From: Octopus vulgaris
Lineage: Eukaryota
Direction of reading: 5' to 3'
NCBI GenBank assembly: GCA_951406725.2
Contig: OX597833.1
Location: 35,030,001 to 35,094,000 of the forward strand
DNA length: 64,000 bases
Shown here: positions 15,444-63,335 of the stretch, one piece after another
How the letters are laid out: the number at the start of each line of letters is the position of its first letter
How positions within the stretch are numbered: position 1 is the first letter of the stretch
The notes under the pieces: generated by a model
Database searches by the model: none
The model's input: the letters and a program-made list of their open reading frames with translations, nothing else
What the model was told of the DNA's origin: nothing
Made by a program: the position numbers and the translations under genes

Positions 15444-15657
15444 CTTTATTTAAAGCAGCAGAAAATTCAACAAAACCTGTTACTCTGAGTTTCCCGTTGC
15501 CGTTCATCGGAGAGTTTTTGCTAGCAACGGCAACGGGAAACTCAGAGTAACAGGTTTTGTTGAATTTTCTGCTGCTTTAAATAAAGCATATTACTCTACC
15601 ACTGGTATTTGAGTACTCTTTTTTCCACCTTGTTTCACATTTATGTGTTTACTCCGG
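15444..15657 (+). mobile_element. Hairpin mini-element family H1: perfect 61-bp inverted repeat + 70-bp tail
   Basis: 15444-15504 is the exact reverse complement of 15526-15586, 21-nt loop; AATAAA; flanked by (TA)n. Confidence 0.9.
15472..15518 (-). ncRNA. Hammerhead motif, CCGAUGA core
   Basis: Minus strand AAAACUCU-CCGAUGA-aCG(gcaa)CGg-GAAA-CUC(a)GAG-UA-ACAGGUUUU; stem I imperfect. Confidence 0.6.
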
Positions 15658-18600
15658 TATATATATATGTATATATATATGTATATATATATATATATAT
15701 ATATATATATATATATATATATATATATATATATATGTATATATAAATATGTGTATGTATAGATATATATCAATATACACAGAATAATAAATATATATTA
15801 TGAAGTAATATACTATGATAATAACAATAAAATAAAGGTATGTATTGGGGTATTAATAATTGGCTTGTTAAATCGTTAGAGACTTAAAAAAAAAAAGATT
15901 TCTCTAATCTGTTGTGGCTGTTTACACGTTCAAATCCTAATATGGTCAAATTTATCTTTATCTTCTGGTATTTCAGGTTAAATAAAATAAACTACCATTG
16001 ATCGTACTACTTCCGATCGGATCGATAAACTCACAGCCTAATAAATTAGTGGCGTTGTGTGGCTAAATTAAAAACAATAATGAATATTATTATTATTAAT
16101 ATTAATATTATTATTATTATTATTATTATTATTATTATTATTATTATTATTATGTAGATATATGTAAATATATATGATAATAATTAATATAGGCAGCGAC
16201 GTGCAATGTTTTACTAAAATGGAAAACTGTATTTGTTATTGAATATGACTAAGGGTGTTATAAACTCCTACATTTCTAGAAATAAGAGCTAAAATGCCCT
16301 AACGCTGCAGTCAAAGCACATAATTGTGTGTTATTATGTACTTTGACTCCAACACTAGAGCGTTGTAGCTCTTATTTTTAGCAATGTAGGTGTGTCTAAC
16401 ACCATTAGTCACACAAACATACACACACGCGCACACACACACATATACACACACATAAATGTATGTATATATATATATATATATATATATATATATGTGT
16501 GTGTGTGTGTGTGTGTCTGTGTGTGTGTGTGTGCGTAGGGAAGAGTGAAAATATATTAACGAATATACACGTAAATTTCCACATACGCATATGTATACAT
16601 GTAAATACATAGGTGAATTTAAATGTATATATATATATACATATATGATTTTGATTTTTCCAGTTTCAGCTAATGAGCTGTGGCCATGCTGGGGCCATAT
16701 ATATATATATATATATATACATATATGTATGTATATATACATATATATATGTATATATAAACACATCTATATATGTATATGTATATATATATATATATAT
16801 ATAGATGTATATAGATGTATATTTCTATTTACGTATGAATATATGTACATATTAATGTATTACCATATATATATATATATATATATATATATATATATAT
16901 ACAATAAGTTATGATGATGCAAAAAAAATAATAGAACTTGAAATATGTCAATATGTATATTTTATCAATATTTATCAGAAGCAACGTAAATGCCAAAGCA
17001 CGAAACTCTTGATTCTTGAGTTACTTTATTCATTGTGCTACATATTATATACATACATACATACATATATATATATATATATATATATATATATATATAT
17101 ATATATATATATGCGTGTGTGTGTGTGTGTGGATGCAAATAAGTATATGCATATGCAATTATATACATAGATATATTTGTACGTTCATCTCTGTTTATGT
17201 ACACACATCACACACCTATACAAATATGGCGGGTTTGAAGTAAGGTGTCAGGAAGAGAATAAATCAATAAACAAATGTGAAATCAAGGAACATGAACAAG
17301 TATGAAAGATATTGTTGCACAGGTATACAATGCAAATATTATTAATTACACATTAAGTGAAACTTGGTGCAGCAGCATGGCCGCAGTCGAATGACTGAAA
17401 CAAATAAATGAATAAAAGAATTACATAAATACACAAAAAAGCTTTAGCACACACGCATATAAACATTTATATCTTTGTATGCATATCTGTATGTATATAT
17501 ATAAGTATATATATATATATATATATATATATATATATATATATATATATATATATATATATATATATATATATATATATATATATATATATATATATAT
17601 ATATATATATATATATATATATGTGTGTGTGTATACACATACATGTATGCATACACACATTAATGTGTGTATAAATATATATATATATATAAACACATAT
17701 ATATGTATGTGTATGTATGTGTATGTATGTATGTATGTATGTATGTATGCTTGTATATATACACATACACAGACAATATAACTCAAATATGTACGTGAAC
17801 ATACATTCCTGCTCATAATATTAAATATATAAACATATTAAACATATAGATATGTTCATTAAACATACGGCGTGCACATATCTATATACTATCACATACA
17901 TATACGTATATAAGAAAATATACTACTCACCTATATATATATATATATATATATATATATATATATATATATATATATATATATATATATATATGTGTGT
18001 GTGTATGTATGTATGTATGTATGTATGCATACACAAATATATATACATATATATACACATATATAAATATACATGCTTATAAATATGAGGATATATGAAT
18101 AGAAGCATGTATATAAATACATATATATATATATAAACACACATATATATGTATATGCATGTGTGTGTGTACATATATATATATATGTGTGTGTGTGTGT
18201 ATATATAAACATATGTATACAGGTGTTTGTGCATGTATGCATATATATATGTAAATATGCATATATATATATATATATATATATATATATACACATCTGT
18301 CTGTCTATCTATCTATCTCGCTATAAACATATACATACACACAAATGAAAGCCTATACACTTATCCACATGTACACATAATTATGCATATATCACATTAG
18401 GATATATATATATGTATATATATATATATGTGTATATATATATATATATATATATATATATATATATATATATATATATATATATATATATATGTTTATA
18501 TAGACACACATATACATATATGTATACATACAAACGCACAGACATACTCACACGCCCAAATTAACATAGGAATTTATTATATGTAGATGTTGGTAGTCTT

Positions 18601-19284
18601 ATGTAAATACATGTGATCCTGATGTATGAAATATCTTATATATACAAGACTGTATGCATACATGGTAATACCTACATGTGAGTACATGTGAATTATTACT
18701 TTGATTATATAATAAAATACTGTTTTGGATGTGTATCGTCGCTTACAACCCGGTGGTCGATGTCACTGGAACGGTTGCATCTTTTTGCATGCTGAATAAA
18801 AGAATGTGGTTATATATATATAACGGATTACATACGTGGCAATCATGTGTGTGTACAAATCATATATGATATGACATTGGAGTATAGAAGAATTTTAGAG
18901 AACAAGTGGTTTTCATGATAAACAACCCTAAAGAACGAAATAAATGGCGAAGGACGAGTATATAGAAAACAAACAAACGGGAAGCGCAATGGCGGTACGC
19001 ATAACAATGTTGTTAAGAAATAAAGAATGTATAAACAAAAAGTACGTAGTGTAGATTTTTACAGTATATGCAGGAGTGGGAAGCGTGTATGGTACATGTA
19101 CATTTGTTGATGGGTCGGATAGAAGTAAAAGACGAATGTTAAAGAAATGAAAATGCATGGAAATGAGAAGCGAAAGTGGTATGAAAGGGAAACAAGGTAA
19201 ACTTGCAGTAAAAGATGGAGGTGAAATAGGCTCTGGAAATATTAAAAGAAAGGAAAAAACTATAATGTTATTCAGTGAATATCT

Positions 19285-19465
19285 GTTTCTTTATTACCCA
19301 CAAGGGGCTAAACATAGAGGGGACAAACAAGGACAGACAAACGTATTAAGTCGATTACATCGACCCCAGGAGTAACTGGTACTTAATTTATCGACCCCGA
19401 AAGGATGAAAGGCAAGGTCGACCTCGGCGGAATTTGAACTCAAAACGTAACGGCAGACGAAATGC
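19285..19465 (-). mobile_element. 5'-truncated SINE family B with 17-bp TSD
   Basis: TTATTCAGTGAATATCT at 19268-19284 and 19466-19482. Confidence 0.9.
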
Positions 19466-61397: not shown

Positions 61398-61561
61398 TCT
61401 TCTTCTTCTTCTTCTTCTTCTTCTTCTTCTTCTTCTTCTTCTTCTTCTTCTTCTTCTTCTTCTTCTTCTTCTTCTTCTTCTTCTTCTCCTCCTCCTCCTT
61501 CTTACTATTCTTCTTCTTCTTCTTCTTCTTCTTCTTCTTCTTCTTCTTCTTCTTCTTCTTC
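61398..61561. repeat. (CTT)n array
   Basis: Direct reading. Confidence 0.95.
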
Positions 61562-63057
61562 AACTTGAACTTGCACAATTATGTCGGAAGTCAAGCATTC
61601 GGATTCTTCCATTCTTGTAGGCCAATTCCATTGGTTTTTACTATATATCCAAGTTTATGGTTTGATAGATTGGACTGTACATTGAGTTACAAAACATATT
61701 CTGTAAATGATTGCATCACTCTTCCCGGTAATTCAGTAATATAACATTTATACGGCGATATCGCATATAGGACAAAGAAACATTCTGACACCAGACAATA
61801 AACGATTAAGTCAAGCTTTTGTATATTTATGAGTGACTTATTTGACTTACATCCCAAATTTTATTTACTTTGCTTCGCGGGAAGGACTGCTTCAACGAGT
61901 AGATGAAACAGGGACAACTGAAGAAGGGGAATATTCTTTATGTTGCATGTCTCGTTTCGCTCTTTTTTACAAAAAAGTTCGTCTCTATGTTTTGTTTTTA
62001 TGTTTTCGTTTCTGGTTGTGTTCAACGTTTTTTTGATGTTTTGTACCCATATATGCATGTATATATACATATATATGTAGGTATGTACATATATGTATGT
62101 ATATATGCATATATTTATATATTATTCATATTATATTATATATATATATATATATATATATATATATATATATGTGTGTGTGTGTGTGTATACTCATACA
62201 TATGGAGCACAAATACGAGCAAAAATAGACACAAATATGAAGCTATGTAATCTCTTAACTCGACAACTGTTTCAAGGAGCTCAGAGTTATGTAATATTCA
62301 TGTTAGTCTTAGTTTGCGAATTAAATATGCAAAAACGTCTTGGGTATGCAAACGTAACTAGTCACATAGTGATATTGCAATAAGTTCAGCTTCTCTCATC
62401 ATGAAAAGATTGACAAAAGCGGTTCATATTGTAGCTCTAGCAGATTTAAACGGCTGAAGGAAGAGGGAAGTAAGAGCAGGAACGAAATGTAGGGAGAGGG
62501 AAGAGACATTTTACAACGAAGGAAGGAACTGAGGTAGAATAGCAAGAGTCCCTGGTAATCTACGCAGACAATAAATCAATGAAAGATGGTAGCTGACTAG
62601 ACAAAGAAAGAGAGAGAGAGAAGGGGGCGGGAAAGAGTGAAGAGATACAAGGAAGAGAGAGGGAGAGAGAGAGATAAGTAATGATGGACAGAAGTAGGGT
62701 TGTGAGTGCGTGTATGAAATGAGGTAACTGTATTTCCGTTTGTCTCTCTGGGATTCTACGTATCGCAGTTTACAACTGGTGTTTCAAGTTCTCGTGACTT
62801 AACAGTTGGGGAAAATAAAAAATCAGGTGCATTATCGTCAATTTGATCGATTAGAACCTTTCAAAGCAACGCTTAAGAAAGCTTGCAGTACAACGACTGA
62901 AGCCAGTAAAGGGAGCAAAATTGTGTAATATATTTATGTGAATATCTATGAATGTATGTATGTATGTATGTATGTATGTATGTATGTATGTATGTATGTA
63001 TGTATATATATATATATATATATATATATATATATGTATGTATACATGTATTTAGGT

Positions 63058-63335
63058 ATGAATATATTATTTAATAAACACAATAGATGTTTTTGTGCGC
63101 TACTATTTGTTTCATGTGCTGAGAGCATTCCAGATAGTATTTTTAGCACGACTGGTATCCTAGCACAATCATCAGACACTGCCTATATGGCATAATGAAC
63201 TGTTTGGCATGCTCTCAGCACATGAATCTAATAGTAGCACATAAGAACACATACTGTGTTTATTAAATAATATTTATATTTGACCAGATGGAATACTTTT
63301 GTTGTTGATATTCCCATCATGGATCTGTACACTAT
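63058..63335 (+). mobile_element. Hairpin mini-element family H4: diverged ~80-bp arms + tail
   Basis: 63058-63138 is an inverted copy of 63199-63280 (e.g. TTCATGTGCTGAGAGCAT / ATGCTCTCAGCACATGAA). Confidence 0.8.
63097..63179 (-). ncRNA. Type I hammerhead
   Basis: Minus strand GUGU-CUGAUGA-u-UGUGCU...AGCACA-u-GAAA-C(aaaua)G-UA-GCGC. Confidence 0.65.

Follow-up and report, generated by a model that had tools for sequence, protein, structure and literature searches.

Hairpin insertions in TA repeats of Octopus vulgaris and their relation to Hydra-type Penelope-like elements

Hairpin loci of the window

We analysed a 64,000-nucleotide stretch of the Octopus vulgaris genome (GenBank assembly GCA_951406725.2, contig OX597833.1, forward-strand positions 35,030,001 to 35,094,000; hereafter the window), which carries several short non-coding hairpins set in TA-rich microsatellites. 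An initial annotation grouped these hairpins (H1, H2, H4 and H5) as a class of self-cleaving, retrozyme-like mini-retroelements, with fold-back tied to a hammerhead ribozyme and mobilisation by Penelope-like elements (PLEs). Judged from their sequence, H1, H2, H4 and H5 are the 3' terminal repeats of four Hydra-type PLE families; the elements are ordinary transposon debris, present in thousands of copies. Comparison of the window with itself, with repeats masked, gave inverted repeats at 243-347, 15444-15586, 35014-35195, 63064-63273 and 38806-38902/39835-39931. Positions within arms are counted from the hammerhead cut predicted for each family, 0 being the base immediately before it and +1 the base immediately after, and the two types of 3' end are called 'tailed' and 'tailless'. 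The arms and the features associated with them are as follows.

178..292, minus strand: tailed arm of the first H1 copy (H1a), from the 3' end of the terminal repeat of a Hydra-type PLE; 98% identical to 15542-15654; 5' end at -7
288..342, plus strand: tailless arm of H1a; begins at CTGATGA (289-295); by comparison with family haplotypes, 13 nt over stem III and the cut site are missing
15444..15523, minus strand: tailless arm of the second H1 copy (H1b); complete hammerhead motif (CCGATGA 15510-15504, GAAAC..GTA 15493-15481)
15526..15657, plus strand: tailed arm of H1b; 5' end at -23, without CYGAUGA; tail about 15587-15657
25456..25790, no strand assigned: second, older head-to-head copy of the H4 family, missed by the initial annotation; CTGACGA core on the minus arm
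35005..35106, minus strand: H2 tailless arm; complete motif with U4C core and GUU triplet; 5' end at -61
35107..35269, plus strand: tailed arm of H2; 5' end at -57; complete motif with the cut predicted after 35164
38712..38916, minus strand: tailed arm of H5, without ribozyme; 5' end at +6, immediately downstream of the cut predicted for the family
38917..39819, plus strand: 5'-truncated young long interspersed nuclear element (LINE) at the H5 apex; C-terminal part of the reverse transcriptase (RT), ATT-repeat tail
39820..39945, plus strand: H5 tailless arm; 5' end at +6
63064..63201, minus strand: tailless arm of H4; 5' end at AGTTCATT; complete motif, its stem II long (CTGATGA 63175-63169, GAAAC..GTA 63113-63101)
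63200..63335, plus strand: tailed arm of H4; GAATC in place of GAAAC; 5' end at -37

The layout first proposed for these loci, an inverted arm, a loop, and a sense arm with a one-sided tail between microsatellites, is present at 178-347, 15444-15657, 35005-35269 and 63064-63335, and the proposed size of 170-280 bp is that of H1, H2 and H4; neither describes H5, which measures 1.23 kb and has the LINE fragment in its centre. The loop is not a fixed part, the apparent loop being the leftover of one arm, and at 213 H1 loci the apex is perfect, with no loop, at CTAG. The tailless arm of H1b ends 5' at the same CTAG, at -43, which is the hot spot of the H1 family; the 15444-15657 copy probably began as a perfect palindrome, from the apex of which 15 nt were subsequently deleted. 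The two H2 arms match each other at 97/97 positions, and the tailed one is 100% identical to the 3' end of an intact 2,580-bp element at another locus (L121). The LINE at the H5 apex codes for an RT (Pfam RVT_1) and has copies elsewhere in the genome that are 99-100% identical, against 97-98% for the H5 arms, and is therefore the younger; it has ATAT on either side, a possible target duplication, and 7 nt of filler at its 5' end. Another insert sits at an H1 apex at locus L028.

A hammerhead had been placed at the fold-back of H1, H2 and H4. The complete motif is indeed present in H1b and H4, on the minus arm only, and on both arms of H2, but H1a (178-347) lacks stem III and the cut site; the window copy of H5 has no hammerhead because both its arms begin 6 nt 3' of the family's predicted cut. 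The stem III sequence said to be common to H1 and H2, GAAACUCAGAGU, occurs in both. The core has U4C in H1b (CCGAUGA) and in H2 (CCGAAGA), the latter with a GUU triplet, and across the families U4C is found in H2 and in about half of H1. The family haplotypes have the features of minimal type I hammerheads (CUGANGA..GAAA..UH, three helices, palindromic helix III), and the ACAGA haplotype of H1 is predicted to co-fold as a dimeric hammerhead; free folds of the H2, H4 and H5 motifs did not give the active shape. A strict canonical scan found no hammerhead in the window, the motifs of which are non-canonical, and an Rfam scan of the window gave no hammerhead family among 150 matches listed of 465, those being miRNA-like and other microsatellite noise. 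An additional repeat, with copies at 407-507 and 26319-26419, carries a decayed hammerhead-like motif, CTGA(A/T)GA..GAATG..GTC, and CTGANGA motifs similar to it lie at 33417 and 61918.

Coding parents of the four families

The whole 2.8-Gb genome was searched and about 400 loci were fetched. Exact probe matches numbered 8,771 for H1, 2,480 for H2 and 1,101 for H5. For H1 and H2, 100 places were listed of the 8,771 and of the 2,480, all on one contig (C1), and reduced to 71 and 63 non-redundant loci; for H5, 64 listed loci gave 82 arms, two of these loci (L405 and L406), apparently one duplicated locus, both being counted. H4 is represented by the best 29 BLAST loci and the two window copies, a weaker sample.

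The PLE origin suggested by the initial annotation is borne out, since the ends of all four families run on upstream into PLEs with a coding open reading frame (ORF) or into RT/endonuclease remnants. H2 has an intact parent, a 2,580-bp unit with a single 708-residue ORF, found in tandems, and genome-wide its matches form both opposite-strand pairs, with spacings of about 90 to 3,900 bp, and 2,580-bp tandems. H1 continues upstream into a 507-residue open stretch that is 42% identical to the H2 protein (locus L174; tblastn), and decayed RT/endonuclease sequence, likewise matched to that protein by tblastn, lies upstream of H4 (L040/L308, L033/L310 and L048) and of H5 (L299-L301). The families had been described as unrelated in sequence, which is true of them as DNA but not as proteins, their parents being 25-60% identical over matched stretches. 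Given this upstream continuation into related coding sequence, the four 'unrelated' families are the terminal repeats of four related PLEs.

The H2 ORF contains YKDD, RWK, DKT, CxCX5C, CxxC and CxH motifs, those of the linker and endonuclease lying at residues 557-565, 660 and 691, and lacks GxKF/Y; among 120 homologues, RW[KR] is present in 116 and DK[TS] in 119. Residues 576-600 hold an IIY..YVG motif, and one homologue has a sub-threshold Pfam match to GIY-YIG (E 0.0057). Pfam and PDB sequence-profile searches gave no match for the H2 ORF, but a search with its predicted fold (predicted local distance difference test score of 92, from an alignment of 68 sequences) did recognise telomerase RTs as the best matches. 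The H5 remnant has KWK and DKT in its N-terminal part and the linker motif CTCRDKSKC; in H1 copies (CNFKNESSC) and in the H4 remnant (CNWRAPGTC) the second cysteine of the linker is replaced. H2 is a unit of less than 3 kb with a (TA)n target, as expected for the Hydra clade, for which the accessible text of Craig et al. (2021, PMC8557442) lists Hydra-1_Obim, of 2,507 bp and with a (TA)n target; the parents of H1 and H5, which have long 3' regions, may exceed 3 kb. Partial tandems, an inverted 5'-truncated copy and a one-sided tail are all found (e.g. at loci L121, L122, L126-L128 and L138). The first assignment, to the Neptune clade, was replaced by Hydra on the motifs described in that text.

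Two of six upstream partial repeats that precede full-length H2 units begin near the predicted cut, at +5 and +17 (L122:3113-3215 and L128:3295-3385). The window itself contains three Penelope-like coding fragments, at 57747-58118 (plus strand), 51127-51558 (minus) and 19633-19896 (minus). Only the last has a match, a weak one, to the H2 protein by tblastn, and Pfam searches with 57747-58118 and 51127-51558 gave nothing.

End points, break points and spliced copies

Arms of each family stop 3' at two fixed points, 62-71 nt apart and beside (TA)n: for tailless and tailed arms, respectively, these are +42 and +108 in H1, +43 and +107 in H2, about +37 and +99 in H4, and +138 and +209 in H5. Of 125 H1 arms, 55 end at +42 and 58 at +108, and of 114 H2 arms, 42 end at +43 and 63 at +107. 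Head-to-head pairs almost always combine one end of each type (45/47 in H1 and 35/38 in H2, or 80/85 together); the exceptions comprise two tailed-tailed pairs among those of H2 and three unclassed pairs, and no tailless-tailless pair occurs among the 47 H1 and 38 H2 pairs. Arm lengths span tens of bases to full length. The 35 H2 pairs are short/short in 12 cases, long/long in 20 and mixed in only 3 (p = 1e-6), and where an arm passes -150 either may be the longer: of 23 such H2 pairs, 14 have a longer tailed arm and 9 a longer tailless arm, and the 6 such H1 pairs divide equally, 3 and 3. Of the recurrent variants, 50 of 69 in H2 (0.72) and 139 of 191 in H1 (0.73) are common to both arms, compared with shuffled means of 0.06 and 0.15.

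The proposed targeting of TA-rich microsatellites is supported by enrichment over background. TA flanks were found at 167 of 180 scored outer ends, that is, at 38/40 tailed and 48/50 tailless ends of H1 and at 43/52 tailed and 38/38 tailless ends of H2, with eight of the nine misses among tailed H2 ends being tandem junctions; the background values are 7.4% for positions in the window and 5.3% for distal ones.

Rates of ending along the arms were taken from mapped loci because genome-wide counts of H2 probes, from 3' to 5', are non-monotonic (2,261, 2,480, 3,294 and 1,244), a result of differences between sister subfamilies; the fall of H5 probe matches from 1,101 to 250 is similarly inflated by CpG decay and a sister subfamily. 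The rates are for 92 H1 and 91 H2 arms with a probe on the 3' side of the cut, a restriction made because of a bias against ends near the cut. Break points are non-random with respect to the ribozyme (H1, p ~6e-20; H2, p ~5e-10), so that the proposed tie between the two stands, but in H1, H2 and H4 the fold sits 5' of the whole motif, not at its cut site. Only 3 of 92 H1 arms end at 0..+11, while the interval -40..-50, where stem I begins (-40), contains the ends of 28 of the 54 arms at risk (0.065 per nt); beyond the hot spot the rate is 0.001-0.008 per nt (0.001-0.004 beyond -67). In H2, stem I begins at -56, and 4/91 arms end at 0..+8, 17/81 at -56..-86 and none of 64 at -87..-150. H4 ends cluster at -73..-100, both at stem I and immediately upstream of it; in the window copy the end is at AGTTCATT. 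Short palindromes fail to predict these peaks, the stronger local ones (H1 -73 and -59; H2 -119 and -177; H5 -8) not being hot spots. No spliced upstream exon was seen by eye at H1 and H2 junctions. The sequence at the 5' edge is TAGTTCATT in H4 (L032, L044, L059; window 63201-63191) and in H5 (L181, L270), TTCTAGCA in H1 and AATAGCC in H2, possibly a common initiator.

A clear class of ends at the predicted cut is found in H5 only, the family in which the initial annotation saw no hammerhead: 17 of 56 arms at risk end at 0..+12, as against 3 of 39 at -1..-13 (p = 0.005). Ends at 0 or +1 are seen at L337, L340, L334 (by its junction), L079, L081 and L083. H5 copies are also spliced. In 47 of 54 genome matches an intron with GT..AG borders has been precisely removed, its acceptor lying 12 nt before CUGAUGA; it measures 700-702 nt in four of five copies, and the junction is present in a sister subfamily too (L383, L394 and L399). 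Among 25 spliced copies, 24 do not extend beyond the A of AGTTCATT and thus end at most 12 nt upstream of the probe, and the remaining one goes 8 nt further, whereas all five unspliced copies in the same set run on past AGTTCATT, three of them into ORF remnants. An extra G stands at the H5 starts in L285, L290 and L335, as a cap would give; mirror-arm remnants yield the same letter. At two unlinked loci of the sister subfamily (L378 and L390) this splice acceptor is joined to another upstream sequence, which may represent a second spliced isoform.

Of the other repeats in the window, 3601-4224 (plus strand) is a LINE fragment with a zf-RVT domain, and 2110-3317 and 16246-16411 are older, diverged inverted repeats of 65-78% identity. 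Two or more abundant families of short dispersed repeats have many copies in the window, e.g. at 12720-13034, 5224-5443 and 47254-47475, which we take to be like short interspersed nuclear elements. Outside the window, an H5 insertion (L297:92-808, minus strand) lies about 550 bp from an open frame that resembles the C-terminal exon of a G-protein-coupled receptor.

Origin of the hairpins and relation to known elements

We consider it probable that each hairpin is an extreme 5'-truncated, head-to-head PLE insertion in a TA repeat, in which one RNA was copied twice and the copies were joined at their RNA ends. By analogy to an anole PLE, as described in the accessible parts of its report (PMC11167929), the PLE protein would nick both target strands and prime complementary DNA (cDNA) at two internal RNA sites, giving the tailed and the tailless end; one cDNA from each site, on opposite strands, would account both for the pairing rule and for either arm being the longer. 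In short insertions priming would occur in the terminal repeat near the RNA 5' end and the cDNA would run off after 50-250 nt, hence the short/short pairs and the sharp 5' edges. The edge would correspond to a transcript start just upstream of the hammerhead in H1, H2 and H4, and in H5 to the start of a spliced transcript or to the ribozyme cut, the latter perhaps also, weakly, in H2. The two cDNA 3' ends may be joined by microhomology, with later apex deletions leaving the apparent loops. The hairpins would then be by-products of transposition and need not form a self-propagating class. A stronger version, which we regard as possible rather than probable, is that every insertion comprises two cDNAs from fixed sites of one RNA and that the hairpins map capped-unspliced, capped-spliced and ribozyme-cleaved templates; if true, this would provide evidence in vivo, for the first time, that the RNA used in transposition is cut by a Penelope hammerhead and that spliced PLE RNA retrotransposes.

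Several observations weigh against this account. Of the recurrent variants, 19/69 in H2 and 52/191 in H1 are discordant, and gene conversion, or the copying of one arm onto the other, would also account for those that are shared; a number of long pairs come close to symmetry, which fold-back would produce too. The putative start sites and cut are read from DNA copies, and the assignment to the Hydra clade is one by sequence motifs. The hot-spot sequence of H1, H2 and H4 resembles a 3' splice site as much as an initiator, and these hot spots could also be caused by stalling of the polymerase, or by a protein that blocks it, immediately beyond the ribozyme. The H5 cut-site peak shows a modest excess, lies in AT-rich sequence in which end calls are accurate to within a few bases only, and overlaps AT-rich palindromes at +6..+15, and for the anole PLE the accessible text reports that ribozyme cleavage is dispensable in vitro and that no RNA-seq reads end at the cut (PMC11167929). 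The ACAGG subfamily of H1, which includes the 15444 copy, is mostly short, with 2/37 arms passing -200 compared with 15/48 in ACAGA, and part of it may be non-autonomous, since the ORF-linked H1 copies seen were ACAGA.

The snap-back origin proposed initially, in which a single cDNA, or an antisense RNA (PMC3846280, as far as its accessible text goes), folds back such that the first arm templates the second, would explain the variants shared by the arms, the perfect apex at CTAG in 213 H1 loci and the symmetry, to within about 30 nt, of some long pairs; the junction palindromes of rotifer PLEs have been interpreted in this way in the same text. A tailless first strand cannot template a tail, and snap-back therefore predicts that the tailed arm is always the longer; it is the shorter in 9 of the 23 long H2 pairs, where the difference reaches 946 nt, and in 3 of the 6 long H1 pairs, and the fixed link of the tail to the longer arm expected of the antisense version is likewise not seen. 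We consequently regard snap-back as unlikely. Long palindromes are unstable, and secondary apex deletions are visible at L002, L004, L016, L027 and L029 and probably in the 15444 copy too, so that short hairpins could be long palindromic insertions that later collapsed. Such collapse leaves unexplained the sharp family-specific edges (e.g. no H2 end among 64 at -87..-150) and the precise loss of the intron in 47/54 H5 matches, and young copies have 97/97 identical arms; as a general origin it appears quite improbable.

The separate, non-autonomous retrozyme-like class of the initial annotation, with fixed hairpin units spread by PLE enzymes, draws on the excess of short over long copies in H1 and H5 and on the nearly uniform shortness of the ACAGG subfamily, and a short copy that keeps an internal promoter could conceivably be re-transcribed. 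Against such a class, the same ends have coding parents in all four families, arm lengths are continuous and junctions vary from locus to locus. Neither hammerhead tandems of 150-450 bp nor short head-to-tail multimers with intact ribozymes, the arrangement by which retrozymes are defined (PMC7229834), occur among the 71 H1 and 63 H2 loci, and the sole H5 tandem (L179) repeats flanking DNA and has a broken ribozyme. The existence of this class is thus improbable. An artefact of assembly or of chimeric long reads deserves next to no credence: no contig piece from public runs spans the window's own apices by 31 bases on each side, but arm-to-arm joints of both tested families are present in contigs of several such runs, and fixed tailed and tailless ends, independently mutated arms, thousands of loci and a LINE inside one apex all argue against it. 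A miniature inverted-repeat DNA transposon was rejected as a candidate, the outer ends not being inverted repeats of each other.

Truncated double-copy PLE insertion, our preferred explanation, bears on matters that the accessible parts of two recent reports (PMC8557442, PMC11167929) state to be open questions, namely the inverted copies, the tails and the role of the hammerhead in PLEs. The four families offer measurable predictions, with specific positions for start sites, for a splice junction and for a cut site, and the protein of the intact, young 2.58-kb H2 element could be assayed. In repeat annotation, sequences of this type should be labelled as PLE ends and not as new hairpin RNAs or miniature DNA transposons.

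Comparisons with published systems refer to what the accessible portions of the cited papers describe. On that basis, the inverted truncated copy, the tail, the hammerhead and the (TA)n target are already published PLE traits (PMC8557442; PMC3846280; PMC4209133). Our literature search turned up no account, for the Hydra clade, of hot spots of break points, of spliced copies of the terminal repeat or of ends at the cut site; older papers on the Penelope mechanism may anticipate the two-cDNA model. The H2 parent resembles the Hydra clade in its size below 3 kb, single ORF, RWK, DKT, CxCX5C linker, CxxC and CxH motifs, and the octopus families resemble it also in the terminal-repeat hammerhead, (TA)n target, partial tandems, inverted 5'-truncated copy and one-sided tail, but their tails, at 62-71 nt, are longer than the 30-40 nt of that clade (PMC8557442). 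With the Poseidon element PAc of anoles (Frangieh et al. 2024, PMC11167929) they have in common an AT-rich target, a predicted dimer and, if our proposal is right, two internal priming sites that bound the tail and the cutting and extension of both strands; PAc belongs to another clade, and it is H5 copies of the octopus that accumulate just 3' of the predicted cut.

The short palindromic helix III and the predicted dimer are likewise features of the minimal type I hammerheads of metazoan PLEs (Cervera and de la Pena 2014, PMC4209133), which differ from the present ones with regard to the U4C core of H2 and of about half of H1 and the long helix II of H2, H4 and H5. The same paper already recognises opposite-strand hammerhead pairs 100-700 bp apart as truncated PLEs. 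A start site and an intron within the terminal repeat are known for Penelope of Drosophila virilis, the intron of which ends at the 5' side of helix I, and for a Chlamys element (PMC8557442; PMC4209133); PLEs are known for intron retention, whereas the H5 intron of about 700 nt has been removed in many genomic copies. The pseudo-long terminal repeats (pLTRs) of rotifer Penelope elements share with the octopus hairpins the head-to-head inverted terminal repeat, the tail on one side and the junction palindrome (PMC3846280); self-priming on an antisense template is proposed there, but arm lengths in the octopus fit two separate cDNAs better. Animal non-LTR retrozymes, similarly, are short non-coding inserts with PLE-linked type I hammerheads (PMC7229834; bioRxiv 10.64898/2026.07.22.740005). 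They are, however, arranged as head-to-tail tandems of 150-450 bp that yield circular RNA, whereas the octopus hairpins are head-to-head pairs continuous with coding elements.

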